From a virus, in the UHGV virus genome UHGV-1596829: a stretch of DNA of 16,562 bases; one strand, 5' to 3'. Below, one piece after another: positions 1 through 16,562 of this stretch; within the stretch, counting starts at the first letter, position 1, and each line of letters opens with the position of its first letter. A model generated the notes under the pieces. It did not search any database, was not told where the DNA came from, and saw only the letters and a program-made list of their open reading frames with translations. The position numbers and the translations under genes were made by a program.

Positions 1-262
1 TGTAAACCGACAGGTCAGCTGTTTTGCGAGCGGCAAAGGCACGGTTGACGATAGCAGCCATCTGGGCACGAACCAGCAGGCCGGAGCTGTTAATCTGGCC
101 GTTTGAGCCGTTCAGCAGGCCGTTCTGTACAGCGCTGCGCAGGCCGGCTGCGGACCAGTCGGTCGGGAAATCGGTAAAGTCTTCGGGCGAGGCAGCGAAT
201 GCATTCGTTGGCAGGAGCATAGCTCCTGCCAAAAGCATCGCAAGGGTACGTTTTTTGTTCAA
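1..262 (-). CDS. Secreted protein of unknown function, N-terminal part only (continues beyond window start); probably chromosomal flank or separate cargo
   Basis: Minus-strand TTG start at 260-262 preceded by AGGAGG (271-276, 8-nt spacer). Translation MNKKRTLAMLLAGAMLLPTNAFA|ASPEDFTDFPTDWSAAGLRSAVQNGLLNGSNGQINSSGLLVRAQMAAIVNRAF has a classic Sec signal peptide (basic N-region, hydrophobic core, AFA cleavage motif). GC is about 57%, well above the adjacent AT-rich segment. The listed plus-strand ORF 24..338 is taken to be its antisense shadow. Confidence 0.5.
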   Translation of the reverse strand, partial: MNKKRTLAMLLAGAMLLPTNAFAASPEDFTDFPTDWSAAGLRSAVQNGLLNGSNGQINSSGLLVRAQMAAIVNRAFAARKTADLSVY

Positions 263-305
263 GTATATTTCCTCCTTGTCGTTAGACTGGGCTAACTATA
301 CCGGT

Positions 306-333
306 AAAAATTTTCCTTTCCATAGGAAAGGAG
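306..333 (-). terminator. Putative intrinsic terminator-like hairpin (9-bp stem, 3-nt loop, followed on the minus strand by AAUUUUUA)
   Basis: Inverted repeat ttcctttcc-ata-ggaaaggag at 313-333; on the minus-strand transcript the hairpin is followed by a short U-tract. It sits about 45 nt upstream of the signal-peptide gene start and could insulate it from prophage read-through. Confidence 0.25.
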
Positions 334-345
334 CGTAACCACAAT

Positions 346-365
346 GAGTTATCATACGCTAACTC
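346..365. repeat. Dyad-symmetric 20-bp motif GAGTTA-N8-TAACTC, copy 1
   Basis: gagtta tcatacgc taactc; the half-sites are exact reverse complements. A second copy lies 132 bp downstream at 478-497. Confidence 0.6.
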
Positions 366-477
366 ATAAGTAGGTAATAAAATACCATAAAGATTTTGTG
401 TTGTCAAATCCTGATATTTACAGGAAAGAATGGCCGTATCACATAAACAACACAAAAAGTACACAAAATCCTGCAAC

Positions 478-497
478 GAGTTAGAATAAGCTAACTC
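478..497. repeat. Dyad-symmetric 20-bp motif GAGTTA-N8-TAACTC, copy 2
   Basis: gagtta gaataagc taactc; same half-sites and same 8-nt spacing as copy 1, and flanking bases are also similar (caaYGAGTTA...TAACTCM). A related GCTAACT also occurs at about 291-297. Confidence 0.6.
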
Positions 498-603
498 CAA
501 ACATGTTTTTTAATAAAAGAAAAATTTTTTGTATGTGCGATACATATTGTATACAGCGGCAGGTGGTGTTTTATTTTCAGGACATTTGGACAGGAGGAAT
601 ATA

Positions 604-1200
604 TTATATAGGTATATATAGAGTGTACAAATTTCCTGTAAAAATTTTTTGAAGAATAAATGATATCGCAACAATAGCTATCGCAGATATGATTGACCTA
701 TATTTATGACTTATCATCATCGCAATACAAAAAACAAGATAGAAATAAATTTCGTAACTTAAAGTCCATGCAGTTATTATTAGACTATAACCATAAAATG
801 GGGCATTTTCAGTTGGCCGCAACTGAAGAAACAATAGTGATTTTTTGATATTATCAATATTAAACCAAAGAGGAACTGACGACTTATCCATCATGAAGAA
901 GTGAGTAGCAACAAGGCTAAAAAGGAAAAAGCTTAATAAATAAACAGGGTATAACCTAAAGAATCGCTTAATGATAAATTTGGCGCATACAAAACTCTCT
1001 TTTTTTTCTGTTGCTAACGCGATGATAAAACCGCTGATCACAAAGAATATATCAACACCTATTGCTCCATTGTAAAACAGAAGATCACCAAGATTTTTCT
1101 GCACGTAAACATCGTTCAGGTACACATTCATATGTCCAAGAACTACCAGCATTGCAGCTATCCCACGCAGTGCCTGTATTGATTGTATTTTGTACGCCAT
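604..1200 (-). CDS. Acyltransferase family 3 membrane protein (O-antigen/LPS acyl- or acetyltransferase type), probably 3'-truncated
   Basis: 198-aa translation starts MAYKIQSIQALRGIAAMLVVLGH...FFVISGF...RFFRLYPVYLL, the typical N-terminal signature of Acyltransferase_3 proteins, with several predicted TM helices. Family members are usually about 330-400 aa, and no continuation is seen in any frame below 604. The segment is very AT-rich (about 30% GC) and sits directly after the tailspike, the same position as oac in Sf6. Confidence 0.6.
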   Translation of the reverse strand: MAYKIQSIQALRGIAAMLVVLGHMNVYLNDVYVQKNLGDLLFYNGAIGVDIFFVISGFIIALATEKKESFVCAKFIIKRFFRLYPVYLLSFFLFSLVATHFFMMDKSSVPLWFNIDNIKKSLLFLQLRPTENAPFYGYSLIITAWTLSYEIYFYLVFCIAMMISHKYRSIISAIAIVAISFILQKIFTGNLYTLYIPI

Positions 1201-1221
1201 ACCATGCTCTGGATGTATTAA

Positions 1222-1257
1222 GGTGCCGAGATATTACACTACGGCACCTTTTGTATC
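1222..1257. terminator. GC-rich hairpin between tailspike and acyltransferase genes (7-bp stem ggtgccg/cggcacc, 13-nt loop); possible terminator/attenuator, strand ambiguous
   Basis: Stem 1222-1228 / 1242-1248, followed on the plus strand by TTTTGTAT; on the minus strand it lies 12 nt after the tailspike stop codon but has a weaker U-tract. Confidence 0.3.
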
Positions 1258-1259
1258 AA

Positions 1260-3443
1260 TTATGATATAGGGATAGCATGCCATTCATTCGTACTGGCAT
1301 CAAGACATGTCCATCCGTAGTATTTATCGATCAAAGATGGGCTGTCGTTCTTAACGAAATCACCTCTTTTTGATACGCACTTGTTTCCATATCGCCCATA
1401 AGGATGTGTATTTAGACCAAAATCAAGGTATTTGAAGCCTACGACGCTTACATTCTCAGGCTTCGGTATGAAAGAGATATATGACGCGGCAACAGTATTA
1501 TTATTAGAAATTGTAGCCCCCTCAAAATTATCCATATCTATCAAAGCTGCAAATTCAGTTAAAACTGAATTGCTTCTGAAAATGTTATTTGTAATGGTTG
1601 GATATAAAAGGGTGTAACCAAGATCCCTAATCCTTATTGTCACACCGATCAGTGTATTATTATCAATAACCGGATATTGTCCTGCCCATACCAGGTTAGG
1701 GAAGTCGTCAGGAACCTGCACATAGTTTCCTGTAAAGCGCATGCCAACCAGAGATTGGTTGGACATAATAGGTGCCGGGCAATCAACGATATGATTGTTG
1801 CTGAATGTTATTCCTCGTCTGATCGGAGTACCAATATTATATTCCCTCATCGCATCCGGCCCACCATGAAACACATTACCAGTGATAAGAAGATTGCTCA
1901 ACCCGCCTGCTGGCTCATCGTCCACGCCACCTGAAACCAAAAGAATATGCGAAGAATCACGCTCACCAGTACTGTATGACTGATTATTCGAAATGGTTAT
2001 GTTGCTTGCACTTCCAATTTCTACAAAAATTCCTCGTGATCGCCTACAATAGTTATCAGCAATCAAACACGTGTCCATATAAGACCCTGGTGTTATACAT
2101 GATTGAATAGCTATTTGGTCGTAGAATTTATTTCCAATAGCGACAACATTTTTTGTGTATGTTGTTGGCGCAAAAGCCTCACCAAACGTGTGCCACTCAC
2201 GTCCGTTATACCACACCTCATTTCTACTGAATTCAGCAAAATCTATTTTACGAGAAAGGAAACAGTAGTTCGTGACATACTTGAAGAAGTTGTCATTTAC
2301 ATAAATATTTTTATTTGTTACTGTTGCATTCCAGTTATCTGCTTTAACAAAATATTGGCTTGCATTTACCAGATTATGATTTATGTATAACTTATCACAT
2401 CCTTCAGCAACTATCCCATACCACCACTCACCTTGTTTATGCTGTGTATCAGCTTCATTTATACTGTAATCAGTAAAAAGCCAATTCCATTTAAACCCTT
2501 TTATTTGAATATTATTGCATCCATTTAGAAAGAACACAGTTCTTTCTTTATATTCATCGTGGTAGGTGTCGATATTTACATCTTTTTCTGCATAAAAAAG
2601 TACGTCATCAATTCCGTCTAAGACAAATGATGCCTGAGTGAAGATATTAAACTTGTCGTGTGTTTGCACACCTGTTGTGAAGCCACATTTAATGGTACTA
2701 CCAGCGTCAGCTCTGCATGCTGTCTTTAAAATGGATGCTAGCTTGATCGCCGCCGTCACAGGTACATCGGCAGCATTTTCACCTGTGACGTCATGGCCTG
2801 CCCATGAGGTTAAAATATCAGATCCGTTATACGACCTCACCCAGCATCCCGATCCGCCAGCGTTAGCTTCTCCCGTTCCCGCAAGGAAAGCAGCGAGCTC
2901 AGCATACGAACCATCCCACGGAACTGTGGGGCTGAATATGGTGATACCGTTGTGCTGAGATTTAGGCATGCTGGCATCCCAGTAAAACTGCCCGCCGCCA
3001 AAGTTGGTTCCTGGTACGTATCCAATTACATTTAATGTGTGATTCCCAGCAGGCTCGCTCATTAAGGTATGGATGTCAGGAACATTCTCCATTCGCTGGC
3101 TAAACTGATCGGGATCATACTTCAGCACATTAGGAAAATAGAACTGCTGCGCACCATACGCATCATAAACAGCCATAGAATGGCCTTGCACAGTTACGAA
3201 TTTGGCAATCTGTCCGTTATATACAGGGTAACCAGCAGCGTTAATGATTATTGGTTGCGAAACGGGAATGTGAGAGCCGCCTTCGTTCTCCACATAAACC
3301 TGAATTTGGTTTTCAGGATTTACCGGGTCCGTGTCAATTTTACCGATATAAATTTTACCATTGGCTACGGCTTTAAAAGAACGAGCCATAGTGAAGAGTT
3401 GCGAAGGCATCGATACGATCACATTGGCTGTAATGTCTGTCAT
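1260..3443 (-). CDS. Tailspike protein: P22/Sf6/HK620-type N-terminal head-binding domain fused to a distinct right-handed beta-helix receptor-binding/glycanase domain
   Basis: 727-aa ORF. The first ~115 aa ([54 protein letters not shown]...VLKYDPDQF) match the conserved tailspike head-binding domain. The rest does not match P22, Sf6 or HK620 receptor domains as I recall them but has beta-helix-like repeats ([32 protein letters not shown]) and lower GC. Preceded by GGAG 9 nt upstream of the ATG. Confidence 0.9.
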
Positions 3444-3501
3444 TTAATTTGCTCCAGATACAATGAATCGCCGCAGCGTGGCCACGGTGAATTTTGGGCA
3501 T

Positions 3502-3524
3502 AAAAAAACCCAGCCGAAGCTGGG
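3502..3524 (-). terminator. Rho-independent terminator after the gp16-like gene, upstream of the tailspike gene
   Basis: On the minus strand: CCCAGC-UUCG-GCUGGG (perfect 6-bp stem, plus 3509-3524) followed by U7 (plus A-run 3502-3508). Confidence 0.6.
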
Positions 3525-3574
3525 TAGTTGCGTTGGTTATCTGTCAGTAGTTATGTGCTTATTTAATTATTTAT

Positions 3575-5419
3575 CTATTGTTCTGCTGTAATTTGGCTTG
3601 AAAGTATAGGGCGTATCGCATTTGCAGCATTATTTAACGCTCTTTCATAAGCTGGCGTTCCTGCTTTGGTGTTTGCCAAACGAAGAAGCATATTCCTTGC
3701 GGCTTTGGACTCATACAAACGCATCATTGCACCAAAACCAGCCTCAAGCCCCATTGATACACCAAGAGTCGCAGTTGCGCCAATCGTCCTTATCCTGTTG
3801 GCTTGCGATTGCCCCGTCTGAGTTACTACATTTGCGGTGTCTGACCTTGCTGTTTGCTGTAGAACTTCATGAAGAGCATCAAGCTCTTTCATGTGCTTTC
3901 CAGAAAAAATAGTGTTGTAAATTTCACCGCCTGACTGAGATTTCAGCTTATTAACTTCAGTGATGAACTTGGCTGGAGAGTCACCGGCCTTTTCCGCTAT
4001 TTTGCTGACGTAAGCTGCACGCATAGCATCTTTCCCTTTATCATCCAGTGCGCTCCAGATTCGTTTCACGTCAGATGGTTTTCTGCTTAATACAACGGTA
4101 TTTATAAGTTCAGGACTGGCTTCACTGCTTGCCTTGTTGAGCTTGTTAGCAATGTTTTTATTAAGCACCTTATTATAAACGTTTGCATAATCGGAATTTG
4201 CTTTAAGGTATTTTGCTGCGTCTGATGCACCGAGGTTTTTAGCAACTGCGTTACGAAGGTCTTTTGACATTGCATTCTCTACCATATTGGTAGCTGCTTT
4301 TGCCTGGTTGGGGAAGACCATAGCATCTCCCTGAACATTAGATCTAAATGCTGTTCTGTGCTGACGCAAGAGATCAAACGTAACATCCAAATCAGTTGCA
4401 GGGTTTGCTAATTCTTCACGTAGGTTACGCAAGGATGTAAGCAGGCTTTGATTGGCAGACGTCCCAAGCCGTTCCTGTCTTACGATCGCTGTATTCAGAG
4501 CATTCATGGTATTTGTGGTATCAACTGCGGCATTACCCATTTTATTGGTGACGTCATTGATAACAGCGCCAGCGGCATCCTTCCGCCCCCTTAACGTGGT
4601 GGTCAGAGATTTCACCACATCATCAGGGTTATACTCACCAAAACGGTCAAAATAATTGCTTACCAGTTTACTACGCGTTGCATATTGCTCCGCTCGCTTT
4701 GAGCCTGTCCCGAGCAAAGCACCCTCGGCATCCTGAGTAAGGCCACGAGTGAAAGCATTTTTCGGCGGGATAACATCAGATGTCATTGGTGTCACGCCCA
4801 TCGATTCTGATGTGGCAATTTTCTTCGCCACTTCTGGCGCAATATCACCTTTTATAGCCGTTATTCCACGCCCTATTCCCTTTGCTGCTGCGGAAAGAAC
4901 ACCCTGAGCGGCAAGGTTAACTCCGGCATTTTTGGCTGCATTTTGTGCGAAATCGCCTTTCTGATTTGCGGCCTCTGCCAGTGATCCAATAGCCATGCTT
5001 CCTGCCGTTCCAACTCCTGGAACTAAATACCCGCCAATTGTTTCTCCAGCTTGCGCATAAGGGTCTGTTGGTCGATCTACTGGACGATAAACATCATCCA
5101 AAACCTTTGGGCCACCAAGCCCCTGGCTGATTGCATTAATCAGACTTGCACCACCCTGCAATACGTCAAATGGTATGTTTACCAGACCACGACCAGCCTG
5201 TTCAGCAATTTGCCCTGCACTTTGACCACCAGTGAGCCAATCGCCAGCTTGTTGCATCAATGATGGTTCTTCACGTGCTGGTTCATTATTGGCCTGATTA
5301 ACTGTTTGTTGCTGAACAGCCTGACCAGCAAAATACTCATCAATGGCGGTGCCAATATCTTCGGTGCTCGTACCATTAGGAAAGGTAAATGTCTTACCGT
5401 TTGCAGTTACTTTCATCAT
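3575..5419 (-). CDS. Ejection (DNA-injection) protein, P22 gp16-like
   Basis: 614-aa ORF in the gp16 position and of gp16 size (last of the 7-20-16 ejection-protein trio); start overlaps the gp20-like stop by 4 nt (translational coupling). Confidence 0.88.
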
Positions 5420-6786
5420 TCCACCGTAAATTGAATGCCTGATTTTGACGTGTAGCTACCTCCTGCTGATTGCTGAGTAGGCGGCTGTTGCATTGATGAT
5501 TTCTTCCCTCCATTACCGACATTAACGTTATATTGCTGGTTGTAATTGTCGGTATATTGCTGAATGTCGCGCATTGATTGTTGCAGTGCTTCAGGGCTTG
5601 AGAAATCAACCTGTGGCATACCTTGAAAATACATCTTTGCTTCTGCAACGGTGTTGATACCGGATGCCCCCATGTCTCTGGCTGCTGCAATGCCCTGATT
5701 CTGCATCTTTCCTTGGATTCGCTGTGCAGCGTTGTATAGTTTCCTCTGATCACCACCAGATGCACGGCTACGAATATCTGCACCAAGAGCAGGAGAACCT
5801 GAAGAGCCTGTAATGCCAGTCATGAAGCCAAGATCGTCAATTGATGCACCAGAAATTGCATCAAGATCTTTCTTCATTGCGTAATTCTGCGCGCTTGCTG
5901 CCGATGTAGCCGGAGCGGCAATAGAGCCAGCAGGGACGCGAACCATATTCCCCTCGTTGTCGATACCTTCGTAGAACGCATTAGCCCCAGCGCCGTGAAG
6001 CTTCCCGCCTACCGTTACAGTTCTGCCATCTGCTAACTGAACTGTACGCTCATTATTCCCAACCGACCCTTTCATTGATGCTCTCTGCATCGATAAATCC
6101 TGACCGCGCATCGTGATATTCTGACCACGCGCTGTTAGCGCCTCGCCAGCCTGATTGCTGCGGATTGTCTCTGCCAGTCTTCCTCGGTCAATCTCACGAC
6201 CAGCCATTTTGTCCTGAACATTGAAGTAATCAATAGGACCAAGAGCAGCCATTCCAAGGTGATCAACAAACTCACCAAATCCTGAAGGATTCTGCTGATA
6301 CATCTGAGCAACGTTATTAGGGTCAACACCGACGCGAGTCAGTTCCTTGGCGTTATTTTGCAGCCATGATTGCATTGCTTCTGGAGACGATGCCGCAAGA
6401 CGAGCGCCAGCCGCTAATGTACCGATAGAATTACGCTGGTCTTCATCAATGAATCCCATGCCTTTACGAACGGATTCAATCTGGTCTGGATATTGAGTAG
6501 CCAACTGACGCAAAGCACCGCGATCACCAGACGCATAAGCATTAGCGTATGCCTGCTGAAATTCTTTCTGCCGCTGAGCCTGCTTTTCCTGCTGAAAAAC
6601 ACCCGCAATACCTGAAAGACCTTGCAAGGCCGTCAGTCCAACATTGTTAGCGCCTGAACGCTCAATATCATTGTTCTGCCTGATAAGCTGAAGCGTATTT
6701 CCGATGTCATTTACGCTAGGGGCGTTTGAGTTGACGCCACCGATACCAGCCAACAATCCGCCGTTTGTTCCTTGCCAAGTAGCCAT
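5416..6786 (-). CDS. Ejection protein, P22 gp20-like
   Basis: 456-aa ORF beginning [10 protein letters not shown]..., Gly/Ala/Gln-rich like gp20; position between gp7-like and gp16-like genes. Confidence 0.88.
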
Positions 6787-6795
6787 GATTACCCC

Positions 6796-7488
6796 TTAAA
6801 ACAACGAGCCAAGCAATCCGATACCAGCACCAATGCCAGCGCCCCAAGGCGTTGATGCTCCCAAAAGGCTGGCAAGACCTGCACCGGCAATCGCACCAGA
6901 CGTGCCACCGCTAATTGCAGTCTGAAGACTTGATGGTTTATTGGCATTAGCAGCGGCAAGAGCTGCGCTTTGCTGTGCAATGCTGCTCATGTTGTTGGCG
7001 TACGTCTGCCCGGCGTTTGCCTGACCTTGCAGCGCACCAAGCCCAACGTTTGCCAGATTGTTGTAATTGCTCATCTGATTTGATAACCAAGACTGACCGA
7101 GTGTCGGCGCGATCGTAGCCAGTTGATTGCTTGTGGCTGTCGAACCAAGTCCACCCGTCGCCTCCGCAGCAGCAAGACTCTGGTAACGCGCCTGCCCTGC
7201 AAGGTCTTTATACTGCTGAGAGTTGTAATACTGATTAAGTGCCTGCCCCTGACCTTCTAAACTGGAAAGGTTCTGAAGCTGGTTAACATACTGCTCCGCA
7301 AGAGGCGTGAATGGAGCAAGGTTTTTCATGATCGTCTGCCACTGCTGATTTTGCAGGTCTGCAGCATACTTCTGGGCTTCTGCTGCATACTTTGCGCTTT
7401 TATCAGAACTGCCACCTTTCCCGCCTTTTTCAGGGCAATAAGGTTCCTCGCCGCGCAGTTTTCTGCCCAGCTTAAATGCATATAACAT
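6796..7488 (-). CDS. Ejection protein, P22 gp7-like
   Basis: 230-aa ORF starting MLYAFKLGRKLRGEEPYCPEKGGKGGSS, closely matching the remembered P22 gp7 N-terminus and length; Gly/Ala-rich C-terminal tail. Confidence 0.9.
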   Translation of the reverse strand: MLYAFKLGRKLRGEEPYCPEKGGKGGSSDKSAKYAAEAQKYAADLQNQQWQTIMKNLAPFTPLAEQYVNQLQNLSSLEGQGQALNQYYNSQQYKDLAGQARYQSLAAAEATGGLGSTATSNQLATIAPTLGQSWLSNQMSNYNNLANVGLGALQGQANAGQTYANNMSSIAQQSAALAAANANKPSSLQTAISGGTSGAIAGAGLASLLGASTPWGAGIGAGIGLLGSLF

Positions 7489-7490
7489 GG

Positions 7491-7949
7491 CTATCTCCCG
7501 TGATTCAGGAAGTCGATTAGTTCTTCGCGTGTGGCGCTGTAAAAAGTCACGTCATCCACGCCTTTGAAGTATTTCTTGATGGTTCCTACACGCTTAAGGC
7601 CAATCATTGCGCAGTACATCTGACCGTGTCGGAATTTGCGTGCAGCGAACGATGTTACGCACTGAACGGTGGTGTTAGTCAGAATGTATCGCCAGAACGC
7701 CAGCCCAATTTCCTTGCTGAAGCCGCGAATCTCTGGCAGGTACATGGCGTGGCAATCTAATGTCAGCGGCTGAATCTCCTGATAGTAAACAATGCCACCA
7801 AACTGACCGTGCACGTTAACCTCAAAGTAACGGCATTCAGGCTTGTAGTCGTACCCATCACCGTTGTTGCTACCGGCGATAATGTCAGGGTGATTTCCGA
7901 CTGCTTCGATCAGGTCGATGTTTCGCGTTTGTTTGAACTGAATCATCAC
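7491..7949 (-). CDS. P22 gp14-like virion assembly / DNA-ejection-associated protein
   Basis: 152-aa ORF in the conserved slot between the needle gene and gp7, overlapping the needle stop by 4 nt. Assignment is mainly by synteny. Confidence 0.65.
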
Positions 7950-8794
7950 TGCTCCGCGATTATCTTGATGGTTGTGGCAGTAAACGCCGCACCATTTGAC
8001 TGAATGGCTAACGTACTGCCATTTGTGGCAAGAAAGCCGTCTTTATCCACACTGAAGAACGTAGCTAACAGGATGTTGTCGGTTGTTGTCGCCGCATTAC
8101 GACTGCTGACCTGTGTGTCAGGGACAGAGCCGGAAAAGGTTAGCTGCATTGACCTGTTGGCGGTTCCGCTGGGCCACGTCCCGACAATCGACAGCTTGAA
8201 GAACAAGGTTTTGTTCTCGTTGAACACAACCATCTTGTTGTTAACGGTGTCGAAGAATGGTGCCAACGTGCCGGATGACGGCGTGAGCGTTTTCAGCAGG
8301 CTAACAAGGTTGGTCGGCGCTGTCGGGATGGTTACTGATACGCCAGAGTAAACAACTTCTGACTTCTTGCGCGTAGTGGCATACTCCAGAGCATTAATGC
8401 GCGTTTCATGGTCTGAAACCTGCGATTCCAGCGACTGAACTCTGGTATCAAGCGACGCAATATCGCTTTCATTCTGAGCTATTCGTGTTTCATGGTCCTG
8501 AAGAGTTGATTCTGCCTGGCTGATTCGCTCCTCATGATTAACAAGCGTTGCTTCCGCAGCAGAAATTCGCTGCTCATGGTCAGCGAGAATCACATCCTGC
8601 TCATCGTTCCTGACCTGTGCATCATAAGCGCCCTGTCCGGCCTCGTTGGCCTTGTTAGCCACGTTACCAACATCAGTGCCCTGTGCGATAACGTAAAGCA
8701 GATACGACTGCGAGAAGATATTGCGTGGAAGGACTGATGTGTCGAGCCGTGCAGCCTGAATGATTACCGGCACATTGAGATTCGAATCCGCCAT
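7946..8794 (-). CDS. Tail needle protein (P22 gp26 homolog) with Sf6-type C-terminal knob domain
   Basis: N-terminus [43 protein letters not shown]...[11 protein letters not shown] matches P22 gp26. A central coiled-coil has repeating DHExRI units. The ORF is 282 aa versus 233 in P22, with an extra C-terminal ~130-aa domain as in the Sf6 needle. Confidence 0.9.
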
Positions 8795-10212
8795 TACTCA
8801 ATCCTTATCTGAGCGCCAGACAGAGTGACAGGTGACTTCGTGATAACGCGCAATTTGAAACCGATATTTTTCCTGATGCGCCCGACACGCTTCCACAAAA
8901 CACGTTTGTCGTAAATGAACGGTTCATTCTGTTCAATCATCTGCTCACGCCCGTAATTTATGCCGTCAGTGGTTGCAGAGAGGAACAGGCGGTCGGCGTA
9001 CTGAGCTACGCCAGTGGATGATTCCACCTCCAGATCGAAGCATCTGGCGTTATCCGCTTTGAACAGTGGAGTAAACAGCAGGTGTTCCTGTTGCTTGTCG
9101 TACTGGCTGCTGATGTCGAATTGCAATTTCCCGGTCACGGACTCCAGCTTATCACCGCACGTTATCTGATTGCCTTCGTAAATGAAGTCGATAGCGCGGT
9201 ACACATCGTCATACAAGCCAGTTTTCAACACACACCATTGCGGACCATTGGCGCTTGAAGATGCGTCGTACACGAGAACATGGCGCGGAAGGTGGATAAT
9301 CAGCAGCTCATGCGCATCAAATCGCAGAGACTCCATCACACCATCAGCCAGTTCATCAGCAGTGTAGGAGCGGAGAATTTTCTCAATGCTCGCGCTGGCG
9401 ATTGGTGACACCTGACCGGAGCCGATAATGTATACAGACGGCGCACCCGTTGCCGGATTGCTGATGAACGCATACGAATCAGCAAACGGCGTTTTGCAGT
9501 AAGTCCCGGCGATGCCTTTTTGCACCATCAGTGATGGCTGTGCGACATACAAAGCAGCACCAACGGTGGTTGCGCCAGTCAGGGAGAAGTATTCAATAGT
9601 CGATGAACCAAAGCAGACGATGAAGTCTCGCCATGTCCCGATACCGATGATGCCGTCCGGCTGAGACTCGGCACGATATTGTGCGCTGTAACGGTCAGGA
9701 TGCGATTCGTCTTCAAGGTCAGTGATAAACCATGAATCAGTGCCGTCTTTTGACCACGCATAACGCCCACGTAAGCGCGTAATGTCGCGAACCGAACCTA
9801 ACTCATACTGAGTGAATCCGCTATCTGCAGGCCAGTTTGAGACGGTTTTAACCGTGCCATCATAGCGATACTCTACCAGTTGACCATTAACGCCTACAGC
9901 CTGAGATGTCCGACCATGCGCCATTGATACACGACCACTTCCGGCAACATCACCGACTTCGCTTTCGCCCTTATACAGCTTGCCCCCACACACGCGATAT
10001 ACAGCACTCTGCGCCATGTTGTACTCGACGCCGCGCGATATACCGTTCACATCAGAACGTTTGGCAATGCCCGGGAATGAGCGAAGATATCCGCTGCTGT
10101 TAAGGATTTCTTTTGGTGTAGCCAGCATATTCACTGGCAGATAGTCGATATAGTCGGCGTTTCGGAAGTCTTTGCCGACACCTTTCATAAGCGGAAGTTG
10201 CTGAATCGGCAT
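8794..10212 (-). CDS. Tail hub / tail accessory protein, P22 gp10 homolog
   Basis: 472-aa [52 protein letters not shown]..., near-identical to the remembered P22 gp10 along its length. Confidence 0.95.
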
Positions 10213-10221
10213 TTATTCACC

Positions 10222-10683
10222 TCACGTACTCGGATCATCTTTCTCGATGTAAAACCGATTCCACGTAAACGCGCTTTTGTTACCACTACCGCGAGGCATG
10301 TCATTTCGCCGCTCAAGTGGTGGTATTTTGGTTAAAGCGATACAGATTGTCTGATATGCACTGTCAGCAGCGGTCAGGAGAGCGTCTGACGGCTGAATGA
10401 CGTTATCCATGCACACTTGCACAGCGAGCTTCAAAGCCACGCCATCATTTGCCCATGCAGGGATACCTGAATCATCGTCAGGTAACGGCATGATGCCGTT
10501 TTCTGTATCCGCAAACTGATATCCAAGCTCGATACCTTTCGCCTGCCATGCTGCCATCATGTCTTCGAGGTCATTAATGGCATCTTCAATTGCCTGAGGG
10601 TCAGCATCTGTCAACGTGGCATTGGAATACAGCCCAGCTTTTCGTAAAGCCTTTAGAACGAGATCACCCTTCGTTTTCGCCAT
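10222..10683 (-). CDS. Head-tail adaptor (tail accessory factor), P22 gp4 homolog
   Basis: 153-aa ORF, MAKTKGDLVLKALRKAGLYSNATLTDADPQAIEDAINDLEDMMAAW..., alignable to the P22 gp4 N-terminus; conserved position between coat and gp10. Confidence 0.9.
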   Translation of the reverse strand: MAKTKGDLVLKALRKAGLYSNATLTDADPQAIEDAINDLEDMMAAWQAKGIELGYQFADTENGIMPLPDDDSGIPAWANDGVALKLAVQVCMDNVIQPSDALLTAADSAYQTICIALTKIPPLERRNDMPRGSGNKSAFTWNRFYIEKDDPST

Positions 10684-10852
10684 CTTCTTCCGCCTTAGCC
10701 ACTTTTTGCTTCGTTGCGGTTTCTTCAGGAGTTTTTACCCAACCTTTTTTCAGGTGAGATTTAACTTCTTCGTCATCAACAATGATGTAATCGACAGCAA
10801 ACTGACCACAGGTGATCATGTTGCCAGGCTTATAGAGCATTGTTCGTGCCAT
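10664..10852 (-). CDS. Small acidic hypothetical protein (62 aa) between coat and gp4 genes
   Basis: ATG at 10850-10852 preceded by GGGAGA (10858-10863). Translation MARTMLYKPGNMITCGQFAVDYIIVDDEEVKSHLKKGWVKTPEETATKQKVAKAEEDGENEG; overlaps the gp4 start by 20 nt. The track's longer TTG-initiated version would start inside the coat terminator, so the ATG start is preferred. Confidence 0.45.
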   Translation of the reverse strand: MARTMLYKPGNMITCGQFAVDYIIVDDEEVKSHLKKGWVKTPEETATKQKVAKAEEDGENEG

Positions 10853-10863
10853 TGTCTTCTCCC

Positions 10864-10886
10864 AATAAAAATGGGGCCGAAGCCCC
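10864..10886 (-). terminator. Rho-independent terminator immediately after the coat gene
   Basis: On the minus strand, 6 nt after the coat TAA: GGGGC-UUCG-GCCCC (GNRA-like tetraloop hairpin, plus 10873-10886) followed by AUUUUUAUU. Confidence 0.55.
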
Positions 10887-10893
10887 ACCAAAA

Positions 10894-11781
10894 TTACTGC
10901 CCGGCAATAACGATGCCCGTATATTCAGGAACCAGTACAGAGCAACCGTACAGAGTGGTGAAACGCGCAGTGGTTACGCCTTTGATGTGGTCGAAGGCGT
11001 AAGACATGATCAGCGTAGCGCCCTGCTCGGTGGTTGCTGTCATTACCTGTGGACCCTGACCAGTCGGGAACGCCAGTTTGCCGTACATCAGCTCAACAGA
11101 ACCATCAGCCCAGAACAGGTTAGCCGGTGCGGCATTCTTGTTGAGAATGGTAATTGCTGCACCATTTGCCGCGTTAGCATCAACGTTTGCATATGGACGG
11201 CTGGCGACATCTGCGTTGTCAGGCGGCAGAATTTTCGGGGAGATAGTTACTGTCGTTCCGCTTACTGCCAGAACGCGGAATACCTGCGGCTGCCCGGTGG
11301 TGTCTTTGGTGATCTGGTGTACAGAATTCACGCCAGCAATGGTGAACGCATCGCCAACCTGCAAACCTTCAGCAGATACCGTAATGGTCCCCTGCCGGTT
11401 ATCCACTGGCATATCGTTAGCATCTTTCGCTTCAACCTTGTGCGCAGGTTCAGCCGCCAGCGTCAGGGAAGTTGCTGTACCCTTCGGAACACGACCAGAA
11501 ATATCGGTCTTGTAGCTATCGAAGGACGCAACCGGAGGGATCTGCGCTTTTTCGTATGCTGTCAGGGTTGCGCCCTGAGCATAGGCACGGTGACCAAGCT
11601 CGCCAGCAAGGTCTTTGTAGTTGAAGGGGTTCCAGAAAGAGCGGCGGTTGATACCCTGTGGTACACCAATCGCCGTCATGGTGGCATCAATACCTGCCGC
11701 ACAGTTCCACAAATCACGGCCCTGTGAACCAGTGGTTGAGTCAGCCATTGTGATCACGTTAGTAGCACGCTGCGTGACCAT
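10894..11781 (-). pseudogene. Major capsid (coat) protein, P22 gp5 family; 5'-deleted fragment lacking roughly the first 100 codons and its own start/RBS
   Basis: The translation aligns with P22 coat from about residue 100 to the C-terminus (e.g. ...YANVDANAANGAAITILNKNAAPANLFWADGSVEL... versus P22 ...[35 protein letters not shown]...). Upstream in the same frame, coat-like sequence stops near 11810 and stop codons follow. The gene abuts the truncated portal gene with no scaffold gene between. Confidence 0.8.
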
Positions 11782-11786
11782 GGAAA

Positions 11787-13496
11787 TCAGGTCAGAGTCA
11801 ATCTGTGCAGCTTCGGCGTTCCTGGTGGGATAAGTGCCAGCATGGAAAGTAACGACTTAACCGTTGCATCACGGCGAGTAGCGAACGACTGACCGACATC
11901 GACAGTCACTTCATAGTTACCCTGCGAAAGGTCGTTAAGCGCGATAACCTGCCCTGTCTGACGGTCAACCACTTCACCAGTCATCAGCGCCACGTCATCG
12001 CTGCCGTCCTCATTAACGATACGCATCGGCGTATCGCTGCCATAGACTTCACGCGCCATAGAAAGCCACACAACGCCAGCGCGACGCATAGATTTAGCCA
12101 TGTTGTCCATGTAGATATAGGACTGCGTGTCCATCCGGTTAAAAATGCTATCAACGGTATCAGTAGCGACGTTGCTCGGCATGTTCTCAAGCTGCGACGC
12201 ACCTGTAATTTGCTGAATAGCCGTTCCGGTGTACTGCAATAGCCCGGCAAGAGCAGGAGGCATTTGTGTCGGAGGTGTCCAGCCAGCAACCTGAGCTTCT
12301 GAAATGACTGTTCCGTTTTTGTCCTTCTTGCTGGTCATGGGAAGAACTGCAGGTCTTTTCTTATTCCTCTCTGCCCAGTGATTCATTAATGGACCGGGAA
12401 TGAAATCAACATCCACGATAGGAATGCCATCACCGCCCGCCTGAGTAGCGTTATCTGCAATCATGGAAACCATCAGGTTCTCAAGACGCTGTGCATCCAT
12501 CGCTTTTGCTGCGTGGCCTTCGATTCGTTCCTGATTATCAACAAATGAGCGACGCCCATATACCGGGATGAGAGGAATATGTTCGCCCGGAATACGCTTC
12601 GGTTCTTCCAGCCATTCAGCGCCAGACAGAAGGCCGCAATAAACGCGGCGTTTCTTCACCGTTCGCTCGCCAATCAGTTCGAATGCACCATCGGTCAGCT
12701 CGTCGACAATATCTTTGATTTGCTCTTCATCATAGATTGCCGTTTCTCCGCTAACAGGGTTGCGCCACGCCGTGAGCTTCACCTTCTCTATGCGAACTTC
12801 GTAGTAACGTCCAACATAGATGGCGTCAGGCGTTGACCAGTCATACTGAGTACCAGTGTCATCCCGAGAAAGGCTTGCCGCAATGGAATCAGGGTATTCA
12901 GCCTCGAACGCTTTAGGCGTCATGGAGAACATTTCCATAGCCCACATAGCATCAGAGCGGTCATATTGTTTGCTGTCCTGATCGAAGAAGACGCATGTCG
13001 CCGGGTCGTAAACAGGAAGAAGACTGATGCGTCGCTGCTCGTTACTCGGATCCATTTCATCTTCGTAATCAGCACACATGCGGAAACAACCGAACCCGCC
13101 CGTTACAGCATCATCAAATGCGTTATCACACGCTTCACCACCTGATGTTTCCTGATAGTCAGCGCGGAATTTGCCGTTCATCTTTTCGGCTAACGCTTCC
13201 GATGCCTTATCGTCCTTCGGCCTGAATTTAACGCTGATGCGATTCTGTCGATACTCGCCAATGATGCGATCACATTCACGGGCAATCTTATTCAGTTCAA
13301 AGCGCGGATAATGCTCAAACCTGCCTTCATCAAATGAGTAACCAGCGTTTGTGCTGCCTTCCCACTGTGCGCCGGATACCCGGACGAAACGTTGAGCCTC
13401 AATAATCTGCTTACGCATATCCTGCGTTGCTGACCAGGCATTATCAAAGTTGCACAGCACCTTGCGATGCCAGTCAGTCATCTTTTTTTCTGCCAT
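11787..13496 (-). CDS. Portal protein (P22 gp1 family), 3'-truncated; lacks the C-terminal ~130-150 residues
   Basis: 569-aa ORF with portal-core homology (PGEHIPLIPVYG versus P22 AGEHIPIVPVFG; ...LLSMLALIPPGTP versus P22 ...ELLGKTPQGTP). After GTP the frame reads 8 unrelated residues and stops; P22 portal is about 725 aa and Sf6 about 708. Confidence 0.85.
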   Translation of the reverse strand: MAEKKMTDWHRKVLCNFDNAWSATQDMRKQIIEAQRFVRVSGAQWEGSTNAGYSFDEGRFEHYPRFELNKIARECDRIIGEYRQNRISVKFRPKDDKASEALAEKMNGKFRADYQETSGGEACDNAFDDAVTGGFGCFRMCADYEDEMDPSNEQRRISLLPVYDPATCVFFDQDSKQYDRSDAMWAMEMFSMTPKAFEAEYPDSIAASLSRDDTGTQYDWSTPDAIYVGRYYEVRIEKVKLTAWRNPVSGETAIYDEEQIKDIVDELTDGAFELIGERTVKKRRVYCGLLSGAEWLEEPKRIPGEHIPLIPVYGRRSFVDNQERIEGHAAKAMDAQRLENLMVSMIADNATQAGGDGIPIVDVDFIPGPLMNHWAERNKKRPAVLPMTSKKDKNGTVISEAQVAGWTPPTQMPPALAGLLQYTGTAIQQITGASQLENMPSNVATDTVDSIFNRMDTQSYIYMDNMAKSMRRAGVVWLSMAREVYGSDTPMRIVNEDGSDDVALMTGEVVDRQTGQVIALNDLSQGNYEVTVDVGQSFATRRDATVKSLLSMLALIPPGTPKLHRLTLT

Positions 13497-13497
13497 A

Positions 13498-14913
13498 TCA
13501 ACCTACACCACAAGGAATTGAGTAACTGGAATAGTCGGGTTGCGCAGCCGACTCCGGGCAATGCATACACATCATCAGCGCATCAGCCAGGTTAGGAGAT
13601 GGAATACCGAGCTTCTGCTTCATTTCGACCTTAGTCATAAGCTCCAGCTTCCCGTTATTATTGAATTTGCGCTGAATCTGCGTCAGTTCTGCAAACAGCT
13701 TCTCCAGCATCTTCTCGCCTATCGCTTCTTTGTCGAAACTCAGCATGTCGTCGGGGTCTGCATACTCACCGTGGACAACCGCCCGATATGTCAGATACAG
13801 CCTGTCAGCCAGCGCGTAATAGAATTGCGCTCGCTTATTGCGGAACACATCGCCAATAGTGCGAACGTTGTCGCCCTGTACGACTTCATCAGCCCATGCT
13901 CCGGCCTGATACGGTGCATCTTCATCGAATGGCGATTCGCTGCCCTTAAACATCGTGGCGGTGATTTTCTTACCGGAGAATGCTTCCGTTGTCTGTCTGC
14001 GCAGCCCCGCACCAACACCATCACCATCCCACAGGTAGTGGTCAGCGCCGTCTTCAATCGCCAGCGAAGTAGCCCAGTCAGCACCCTCGTTGATATCCAT
14101 CAGCAGACCTTTGGCAATGCGCTTAACTACCGAACCGTGACGCGATGCGTAACCTTTAGCATCTGGCCCTGTATCTGATGGGTCATGCGCAGAAACAACA
14201 GCGCCTTTCGCTTTCCATCCGAGTTTCTTGTGCGCATCGGTTGCAGCTTCAAGCCATTCACGTTTGATGATTGCCATATCACTTGCGCTTACTGGCTCAC
14301 CAAGCCAGATGTGACGATACAGTGTCGGATTTCTGCGTTTGCACTCTTCCATCTCCAGACGGAGAACTTCAGGAAAGTGCGGGTTGTCGGTGTAGTTCAC
14401 CGTCAGCAGACAAATATCATCGGGAGGATTTACAACGAATCGTTGATAGGTATCGTCGAGGATGTTCTTAGGGTTGAAGCTCACCCATATTTCGGAGAAC
14501 GGCTTACGGATGGTTGGTATCAGGATATCCCATGATTCCTTCGTTACCGCTTCCGCTTCTTCCACCCAGCAGATATCAATGCCTTCGAGCGATTTAATCT
14601 TCGTCGGGTTGTTTTTGATGCCGTAGAACATGAACTCAGCATTCGTTCCGAGATGACGAATCATGGAACGCTGAATTTCAAACTCAGCCGTATACCCTTC
14701 ACGCTCTATGGTGTCTTCAAGCAGCCGGATTACCGAATCGCTGATACTGTTTTGCAGTTCACGAGCGCAGAGAATACGCACTGGCTGCCGACGCGCCGCT
14801 TCAACAAGCAGCCTCGCAATTGCCCATGACTTACCGCTACCTCGACCGCCTTTGGCGACTTTGTAGCGATGCGCCTCAATGAACGGTTCAAAGATAGGAT
14901 TAATCGTGGTCAT
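13498..14913 (-). CDS. Terminase large subunit (Sf6 gp2-type)
   Basis: 471-aa ORF, MTTINPIFEPFIEAHRYKVAKGGRGSGKSWAIARLLVEAARRQPVRILCARE..., with Walker A (KGGRGSGKS) and near-identity to the Sf6 large terminase as remembered. Start overlaps the TerS stop by 4 nt. Confidence 0.95.
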   Translation of the reverse strand: MTTINPIFEPFIEAHRYKVAKGGRGSGKSWAIARLLVEAARRQPVRILCARELQNSISDSVIRLLEDTIEREGYTAEFEIQRSMIRHLGTNAEFMFYGIKNNPTKIKSLEGIDICWVEEAEAVTKESWDILIPTIRKPFSEIWVSFNPKNILDDTYQRFVVNPPDDICLLTVNYTDNPHFPEVLRLEMEECKRRNPTLYRHIWLGEPVSASDMAIIKREWLEAATDAHKKLGWKAKGAVVSAHDPSDTGPDAKGYASRHGSVVKRIAKGLLMDINEGADWATSLAIEDGADHYLWDGDGVGAGLRRQTTEAFSGKKITATMFKGSESPFDEDAPYQAGAWADEVVQGDNVRTIGDVFRNKRAQFYYALADRLYLTYRAVVHGEYADPDDMLSFDKEAIGEKMLEKLFAELTQIQRKFNNNGKLELMTKVEMKQKLGIPSPNLADALMMCMHCPESAAQPDYSSYSIPCGVG

Positions 14914-15350
14914 TTTCCGAATAGAGTGCTCATCGGTGATGTTTCAATCTGAATTGCGCCGCCGTCTTTGCCTGTTAGCTCGTGATCAACCTTATCGCGC
15001 CATTTATCCTTCTGTCGGTTCTTAAGCCAGAAGATGGCGGCGGTTGTATCAGGCGGGTAATACTTCTCAAGCGGAGTTTCGACAATTCTGTTTTCAATAA
15101 CACGAATATCGATGTCTGGAGCCACGAAGCCCATAGCGCGTTGATAAAGACGATCACTAACTTCTGCATCAGCGACGGCCTTACCCTTTTTTATGGACTC
15201 CGAAAACTTAGGATAATCAAGCTTCCACTTGTTAATAGTTGACTCACTGACTTCAAAGAAATCAGCAAGTTCTGCATCGGTGTAGCCCAGCAAGCACAGT
15301 TTGCGTGCCTGTTCGGCATACGCCTCTTGATACTTCGTTGGGCGCGCCAT
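14910..15350 (-). CDS. Terminase small subunit
   Basis: 146-aa ORF directly upstream of and overlapping TerL; the N-terminal region looks like an HTH DNA-binding domain, and the C-terminus (...GKDGGAIQIETSPMSTLFGK) resembles the Sf6 small terminase tail as I remember it. Confidence 0.85.
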   Translation of the reverse strand: MARPTKYQEAYAEQARKLCLLGYTDAELADFFEVSESTINKWKLDYPKFSESIKKGKAVADAEVSDRLYQRAMGFVAPDIDIRVIENRIVETPLEKYYPPDTTAAIFWLKNRQKDKWRDKVDHELTGKDGGAIQIETSPMSTLFGK

Positions 15351-15352
15351 GT

Positions 15353-15595
15353 TTATGCTCCGGTAGTGAACAGGTCTAACGCTTCCTTCGATTTACGCAC
15401 CGCTTCGATAGTGCGGGTCGTGATATCTGAATTAGCGCCGCCTGACTGGAAGTGAATTTTAAATAGCTCAAGCTTCAGCTCGTCAGTGCCAATGAATTGA
15501 AATGCTTCTTCTGCGGCTGCGTTCTGGTTCATGACCAGTTTGTAAATCTCTAACTGGAATTTCTGTTCTTCAGTCATGGGAATAATCTCTGCCAT
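15353..15595 (-). CDS. Hypothetical 80-aa protein, translationally coupled to the small terminase gene
   Basis: GGAG 7 nt upstream of the ATG; its stop lies 2 nt before the TerS ATG, with the TerS RBS (GGAGCA) inside its 3' end. No recognisable domain. Confidence 0.5.
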   Translation of the reverse strand: MAEIIPMTEEQKFQLEIYKLVMNQNAAAEEAFQFIGTDELKLELFKIHFQSGGANSDITTRTIEAVRKSKEALDLFTTGA

Positions 15596-15842
15596 TGTTG
15601 GCTCCGTTTATCCGTTAAAAGGGATATCAGTTAAGTTATCCCGTGTAGGGTATAAGCCATTGTCGAGACCACTCATTGAATGGCCTCTGCAATAACCGAT
15701 GTCTTTCCATCAGTCCGCCACCACAAAGAATCTTTTTTGCCATAAGGCAGGAGGTTCATCTTTCAGTGGCTGCCAGTGTTATTTCCCCACTTTCTGGCTT
15801 GGGTTGTTTCGCTGTACTGCTGTTAATTAGTGAGTCCGGGGA

Positions 15843-16328
15843 TTATTTCAGTTCGTTACCAGGCATTTCTTTTAGCTCTTTCAAATGACAACGATTGAGA
15901 CTAAACCACTCCCCGTGCGACCTATAGTTGTAATATTTTTGGTGCAATTTGGTTTCAAGCTCTCTATCGGCCGGAATCTTTGCAATTAGATTTAGCTTCC
16001 CACCACTCATGCGAGATATCTCTGAAATTCGTTTATTAACCCTGCGACTAAACCCTATTTTTGTTAGCCCACTATCTTCAGCATGCAGAACGTACACATA
16101 TGATTTTTGCGAAGCACTGGGTGCGACTTTGTTGTAATTAATCATGTCAAACATGAAGCCTTGCTTTAGCAAAGTTTCAAAAAAGATAGAATTAACACAC
16201 CCATTCCTTCTCAGCTCTGCACTTAGCTTGTCAATTTCCTCTATGATGTCGCCAGACCCCTTTCCACTTATAAGAAAATCTTGGTACATGCGACCAATTC
16301 TTGAGGTAATTTCAACAAAGTTATTCAT
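15843..16328 (-). CDS. T5orf172 / MUG113-type GIY-YIG-superfamily domain protein (accessory 'moron' gene)
   Basis: 161 aa. C-terminal half has the T5orf172 signature YVYVLHAEDSGLTKIGFSRRVNKRISEISR...ELETKLHQKYYNYRSHGEWFSL (GIY-like YVYVL, YIG-like KIGFS, conserved R/E, GEWF). AT-rich (about 38% GC) compared with flanking phage genes, preceded upstream by a terminator and followed by a 247-bp spacer. Confidence 0.7.
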   Translation of the reverse strand: MNNFVEITSRIGRMYQDFLISGKGSGDIIEEIDKLSAELRRNGCVNSIFFETLLKQGFMFDMINYNKVAPSASQKSYVYVLHAEDSGLTKIGFSRRVNKRISEISRMSGGKLNLIAKIPADRELETKLHQKYYNYRSHGEWFSLNRCHLKELKEMPGNELK

Positions 16329-16474
16329 AGCGTTTACCTTTTAGAAAGATGAGCCTGTTCGCACAGAAAAGCCGTCCCCGAGATGGTCGCCACCATATAC
16401 GGCAATTCTCAGGCTCAGCTTTCTGAAAGACTCGGGATTGTTACGCGCTGCGATGCGCGGTTTACTGCAGATGT

Positions 16475-16498
16475 AAAAAAGCCCCGCAAATGCGAGGC
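16475..16498 (-). terminator. Rho-independent terminator upstream of the T5orf172 gene
   Basis: On the minus strand: GCCUCGC-AUUU-GCGGGGC (7-bp stem with one G-U pair) followed by U6 (plus A-run 16475-16480). Confidence 0.5.
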
Positions 16499-16562
16499 TA
16501 AATCCTGGTATTTGTAATGATCTGGCTCTTATCTCAACGCAGCCCCTTACCGCGCGCCAGAT

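Follow-up and report, generated by a model that had tools for sequence, protein, structure and literature searches.

Near the left end of a 16,562-nt stretch of viral DNA (UHGV-1596829; hereafter the window), a P22-type tailspike gene is followed directly by a minus-strand open reading frame (ORF) of 198 codons, which spans only the first half of an acyltransferase-3 (AT3) domain. The question raised by this locus is whether the second half was lost in a living genome or in an assembly. The window is one whole metagenome contig, ENA ERZ773221 NODE_2059_length_16562_cov_3.388, whose name gives a mean coverage of ~3.39 and, by its format, indicates a short-read SPAdes assembly; that name is the source for the assembler as well as for its k values. 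The original prediction described the ORF as a truncated, possibly inactive remnant of a serotype-conversion gene. Comparison of the sequences assigns a probability of about 95% to another reading: the 198-aa ORF would be an assembly artefact, created in a contig that is chimeric between two genomes, and it ends early because the contig switches at 629-653 from Escherichia coli prophage DNA to DNA of the Agathobaculum type. The features concerned, in window coordinates, are the following.

1..262, minus strand: 5′ end of a secreted-protein gene, 87 codons, TTG start, with a signal-peptide-like N-terminus (MNKKRTLAMLLAGAMLLPTNAFA); GC 57.6%.
263..628, no strand assigned: Agathobaculum intergenic region containing “tatatata”, upstream of the rRNA-operon promoter; aligned to strain DSM 100391.
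604..1200, minus strand: the ORF, ATG start, 198 aa.
604..630, minus strand: apparently spurious ORF tail, eight codons (LYTLYIPI) plus stop, in Agathobaculum-type intergenic DNA.
629..653, no strand assigned: probable chimeric junction, an exact 25-mer (AAATTTCCTGTAAAAATTTTTTGAA) that Agathobaculum strains have in common with the acyltransferase gene of the E. coli prophage.
631..1200, minus strand: genuine AT3 codons 1-190 of 367, with 190/190 residues equal to the protein of E. coli JKHS016 (WP_112918089.1).
1009-1016 (L002 ~4309-4423): homopolymer run, T8 on the plus strand and A8 in the coding sense; one base shorter in the VE-F10 alignment.
1229-1259: inverted repeat GGTGCCG...CGGCACC followed by TTTT (plus strand), read by eye; overlaps the promoter-like match.
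1231..1259, minus strand: sigma-70-like promoter match TTGATA-17-TAATAT, from a consensus scan only (9/12 matches).
1260..3443, minus strand: P22-type tailspike, 727 aa, PF09008 head-binding domain (E=4.9e-65); PF27114 is also listed.

Several elements of the original prediction are upheld, including the position beside the tailspike and the family, Acyltransferase_3: in Pfam, the 198-aa ORF matches PF01757 (Acyl_transf_3) with E=3.8e-22 and 79.2 bits against a cut-off of 31. AT3 enzymes are defined by the motifs R/K-X10-H in the first transmembrane helix (TMH1), FFxISG, and RxxR (Pearson et al. 2020, PMC7448272), and these are essential in OafA, OafB, and Oac (PMC7448272). All three can be read in the ORF, as R12-X10-H23 (first helix), F52-FVISG-57, and R79-F-F-R82. 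The match spans only profile positions 2-172 of 326, which falls short of a complete AT3 domain of ~10 transmembrane helices. The low GC content of the gene is likewise confirmed (33% both at 629-1200 and in the full-length gene, versus 49% in the phage core at 3575-16562); the tailspike gene has 41%. The single “AT-rich islet” of the original prediction, by comparison, divides into Agathobaculum intergenic DNA (263-628) and E. coli prophage DNA (629-1200), and the “tatatata” stretch taken as the end of the gene (601-620) is in the Agathobaculum intergenic part.

The right side of the contig is E. coli prophage. All 15362 nt of positions 1201-16562 agree with the P22-like prophage of E. coli JKHS016 (100.0% identity), and this match extends leftwards as far as window position 629. 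In the E. coli search set of 5426 complete genomes, six carry the acyltransferase gene and, next to it, the 3′ end of the tailspike gene; positions 624-1400 are 97.7-99.9% identical in these six, and every match stops at 624 when window 1-1400 is the query. The same gene continues past the junction in 6/6, as a single ORF of 1104 nt and 367 aa in four of them, and is annotated as two ORFs in VE-F10 (where these overlap) and NZ_OZ121069.1. The earlier observation that the ORF has no continuation in any frame is therefore correct for the contig, because of the genome switch at 629-653, and incorrect for the gene, which runs on in six complete genomes. The JKHS016 protein (WP_112918089.1; “acyltransferase family protein” in RefSeq; 1104 nt, 367 aa) aligns with PF01757 over positions 2-326 of 326 at 110.4 bits; on profile alignment, then, the window ORF is short and the E. 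coli gene is not. The incomplete AT3 domain is a property of the contig, not of the gene. Full-length comparison gives the same result: the window ORF is identical to WP_112918089.1 through residue 190, and from residue 191 the E. coli protein reads FTIDSYAVPGING... where the window ORF has its eight foreign residues and stop codon. An exact-protein look-up finds the 198-aa protein on one contig only, ERZ773221 NODE_2059.

The listed homologues of the acyltransferase are long, with a single exception. Orthologues in Salmonella, Citrobacter, and Morganella have 61-86% identity and 350-373 aa, apart from one Salmonella sequence of 241 aa, and the best 120 homologues listed from a large protein collection measure 318-423 aa, that same Salmonella sequence excepted. 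Functional full-length homologues of about 200 aa had been named from the outset as the finding that would speak against truncation; a natural form of that size has no support among the best 120 homologues listed, and the claim of truncation is overturned by the evidence for a chimera, not by this test. Window 1-1400 has no megablast match in the phage database, the nearest phage proteins are at most 35% identical (tblastn), and the acyltransferase has no sequence match among solved structures.

The left side of the contig belongs to Agathobaculum. The identity of positions 1-656 to independent human-gut metagenome contigs is 99.85% for L052 (a single mismatch) and 99.7% for L019, and the DNA alignment to A. 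butyriciproducens DSM 100391 runs through the gene, then through the intergenic region, then across the supposed acyltransferase end. The 87-residue fragment encoded at 1-262 (L004 736-996) has 95% amino acid identity to DSM 100391 and 80% to A. hominis, with weaker matches in other Clostridia. An S-layer-homology identity for this left-end ORF, suggested by a repeat-like region after the signal-peptide-like N-terminus, was dropped, as the fragment has no significant Pfam or NCBIfam match, and it is called here only a secreted Agathobaculum protein. Two MAG contigs with other labels, “Bulleidia sp.” (L005, CAVLCS010000005.1) and “Coprococcus eutactus” (L006), encode the Agathobaculum-type protein (92% and 80% identity, respectively) and also have the upstream element; mislabelling or contamination of these bins is possible. 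No match to window 1-640 exists among the 5426 E. coli genomes or 72,556 plasmids, distant mode included, and an insertion sequence or other E. coli or plasmid element is thereby ruled out as the truncating agent.

Relative to DSM 100391, the window has a ~150-nt indel at ~555-560, flanked by a CCGCTGTA(T/C)AC direct repeat (loci listed: L004, L019, L027, L042, L049, L052, and L056). The short form is found in six metagenome contigs as well as the window, the long form in 18 loci (17 metagenome contigs and the DSM 100391 genome), and a few loci are intermediate. A second assembly error at this gap was considered and rejected: because six independent contigs carry the short form, the gap is a natural strain polymorphism. 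The short allele is also present in five of the seven contigs that carry the exact 25-mer, so the left part of the window is an ordinary natural strain variant.

The two sides meet in the 25-mer, and the switch point was placed there by a three-way comparison of window, Agathobaculum, and E. coli. The bases flanking AAATTTCCTGTAAAAATTTTTTGAA differ between the two sources on either side, with the window following Agathobaculum to the left and E. coli to the right. Immediately left of the 25-mer, the window and Agathobaculum read ...TAGAGTGTAC and E. coli reads ...CTATTGTA; immediately right, the window and E. coli read GAATAAATGATATCGC... and Agathobaculum reads AAAAGTTAAAGAAAAGTGTTGACA.... 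The 25-mer is also the longest exact match between the E. coli locus (L001) and each of seven Agathobaculum loci (L052, L019, L056, L042, L049, L044, and L066). A metagenome-wide scan with the Agathobaculum-specific 20-mer TGTACAAATTTCCTGTAAAA returns 54 loci, 42 of them Agathobaculum-type by their flanks; the exact 25-mer occurs in 7/42, the same seven loci, where it is followed by AAAAGTT[A/G]AAG..TTGACA..TATACT. Continuation from this site into the acyltransferase gene is seen in 0/42 of the Agathobaculum-type contigs, and the junction is absent from all six E. coli genomes that carry the gene.

The Agathobaculum copy of the 25-mer occupies a site at which assemblies commonly stop. It lies just upstream of the TTGACA/TATACT promoter and the 16S-tRNA-tRNA-23S operon, and an AT-rich element (TATATAGGTAT.T.TAGAGTGTACAAATTTCCTGTAAAA; L035 2791-8114 and ~20 loci of the 20-mer scan) is conserved upstream of this rRNA-operon promoter in the 42 Agathobaculum-type metagenome contigs. 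About 20 of the Agathobaculum-type contigs end 150-165 nt beyond the 20-mer, before the rRNA operon, so this site is a habitual assembly dead end; its position is as expected at a multi-copy rRNA leader. Since many public gut contigs end 150-165 nt past the element, it marks a place where assemblies break systematically and where chimeras could readily form. For a given pair of genomes of 5 Mb and 3 Mb, a uniform base model predicts ~0.03 exact 25-mers in common, which makes such sharing unlikely by chance. Low complexity and a high AT content would render chance sharing of this word less surprising, as would the enormous number of genome pairs in a gut community.

Three observations carry the reading of the contig as a chimera. 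The flanks come from different organisms (1-656 from Agathobaculum at 99.7-99.85%; 629-16562 from E. coli at 99.9-100%), they are joined at an exact sequence common to both, and the junction is missing from independent assemblies and genomes, being on record in one contig only. The mechanism suggested by these sequences is a k-mer join of a low-coverage graph tip. SPAdes has a smallest default k of 21. At 3.4x depth, the Agathobaculum path would break off at the rRNA repeat, leaving a short graph tip; the prophage path of E. coli would have in common with this tip a 25-base word, exceeding k=21; and the assembler would then walk from Agathobaculum DNA into the acyltransferase gene, joining both paths at 629-653. 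Inter-genome translocations are reported to be the commonest type of misassembly in the CAMI metagenome benchmarks (PMC9661791).

A real junction must be weighed against this artefact, and it is very improbable that the window records a genuine cross-phylum recombinant, in E. coli or in Agathobaculum, formed through the 25-bp microhomology and truncating an O-antigen acyltransferase. If the event took place in the E. coli of the sample, by deletion or illegitimate recombination at the microhomology, acquired Agathobaculum DNA would replace the 3′ half of the acyltransferase gene, gtrCBA, and the prophage end. The position of the junction at a microhomology is as in illegitimate recombination, and independent real damage by a 1-nt frameshift may exist in the two E. 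coli genomes in which the gene is split; yet this event requires DNA of a strictly anaerobic Firmicute, at 99.85% identity to free-living strains, in an E. coli chromosome, although window 1-640 is in no E. coli genome or plasmid searched. The junction is moreover unique to one 3.4x contig, and its Agathobaculum side falls at the exact spot where Agathobaculum contigs end, all of which leaves the E. coli event more improbable still. The reverse event, in which a 16-kb piece of the E. coli P22-like prophage was integrated beside an Agathobaculum rRNA operon, has the contiguity of the contig as the one point in its favour. Its phage part is 100.0% identical to the E. coli prophage over 15.4 kb, a degree of identity that would demand a very recent transfer, and one across phyla; the event is seen in 0/42 Agathobaculum contigs, and its insertion point would have to coincide exactly with the shared 25-mer, so that this event is scarcely credible.

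Equally hard to credit is a naturally short AT3 half-protein of ~200 aa that works alone or with a partner. The essential motifs all lie in the N-terminal half, and tblastn matches in several phages span only the N-terminal 41-46% of the query. Short phage AT3 proteins were for this reason considered as candidates; however, the sole partial match that was checked, in phage TL-2011b, sits in a 368-aa gene, and the N-terminal half alone is conserved enough to align. The lengths of the best 120 homologues listed (318-423 aa, with the 241-aa Salmonella exception) also speak against a half-protein, as do the 10 transmembrane helices that the AT3 pore requires (PMC9833829) and the derivation of the last eight residues and the stop codon from another genome. 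Together, these rivals (recombination that truly took place in one host or the other, or a half-protein that works) account for a few per cent at most. Even as a real truncation product, the N-terminal half would be without TMH6-10 and unable to form a pore.

With the assembly chimera as the preferred reading, the biology to be explained is that of the full-length E. coli gene. A standalone AT3 gene lies beside the tailspike gene at the end of the P22-like prophage in JKHS016, in the order tailspike, AT3, gtrC, gtrB, gtrA, S24 peptidase, and the host gene dacD; the gtrC-gtrB-gtrA cluster is thus at the prophage end next to dacD. The AT3 fold consists of 10 helices forming a pore that brings acyl-CoA to an acceptor at the membrane's outer face (PMC9833829). 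In keeping with its family, the 367-aa protein would take an acyl (acetyl) group from acyl-CoA in the cytoplasm and pass it through the 10-helix pore to a surface glycan, most plausibly the O-antigen. Because the position of the gene between tailspike and gtrCBA parallels that of Sf6 oac, O-antigen O-acetylation is its most likely role, and AT3 with gtrCBA at the JKHS016 prophage end plausibly forms a surface-polysaccharide modification module. In VE-F10, alignment shows that the acyltransferase gene is split by a separate 1-nt frameshift at the A8 tract; with NZ_OZ121069.1, annotated with two acyltransferase ORFs under the match, the split concerns two of the six genomes that carry the gene. 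It could reflect a sequencing error in the homopolymer, on/off switching by slipped strands, or true pseudogenisation, and the full-length AT3, gtrCBA, and rare tailspike could constitute a dual O-antigen-modifying module turned on and off via this tract.

The tailspike is 100% identical to that of JKHS016 and combines a conserved head-binding domain with a rare receptor-binding part. Among the 5426 E. coli genomes, only JKHS016 matches the whole receptor-binding part (1260-3100); the remainder of the prophage has matches in ~2900 genomes, and in the top-scoring ones the alignment begins only at ~3100-3580. The body of the tailspike and the AT3 gene seem to form an uncommon module whose parts travel together. 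A gap of 59 nt separates the tailspike stop from the acyltransferase start. It contains the promoter-like match, in a region where the number of such sites is not above shuffled expectation, and the inverted repeat, which between two minus-strand genes would terminate only antisense transcripts.

The practical lesson is one of caution: a gene that seems truncated where the composition of a metagenome contig shifts can be the join of two phyla. Annotating the ORF would add a false 198-aa acyltransferase to the record, and an E. coli prophage set beside Agathobaculum genes would contaminate bins and phage-host assignments. The underlying biology is ordinary (i.e., a full-length AT3 gene beside gtrCBA and a tailspike gene in a few E. 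coli P22-like prophages); that arrangement is already annotated in RefSeq and is not novel.

Among characterized enzymes, the E. coli AT3 protein resembles in its setting Oac of Shigella phage Sf6, a 333-aa O-antigen O-acetyltransferase. Both belong to the same Pfam family, both consist of AT3 standing alone, with no SGNH domain, and each gene, in its P22-like phage, comes immediately after that for the tailspike, close to the prophage end. Pairwise alignment shows two elements in common, RxxR and, from the FFxISG region, SG. The sequence relationship is nevertheless not a close one: identity is 24% over the N-terminal 173 residues only (pairwise E=3e-8), and Sf6 is absent among tblastn matches at 1e-5. 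The gene arrangements also differ, in that Sf6 oac is convergent with the tailspike gene and followed by int, whereas the E. coli AT3 gene is co-directional with the tailspike gene and followed by gtrCBA. With Salmonella OafA and OafB, which are AT3-SGNH proteins, the E. coli protein has in common the R-X10-H and RxxR motifs of the AT3 domain; unlike them, it lacks an 11th helix and an SGNH domain and ends at residue 367, just past the AT3 domain.

The window ORF itself is best compared with WP_112918089.1 and with known assembly errors. It shares with the E. coli gene residues 1-190, the upstream tailspike, and the intergenic region, and differs in lacking residues 191-367 and in having eight foreign residues in their place. 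The contig resembles an inter-genome translocation of de Bruijn-graph assembly in every respect compared: its flanks match different phyla at ≥99.7%, its coverage is 3.4x, its parts are joined at a shared 25-nt word longer than a small assembly k, one of them is a repeat-bounded tip beside an rRNA operon, and the junction is unreproduced elsewhere; nothing about it is atypical of that class.
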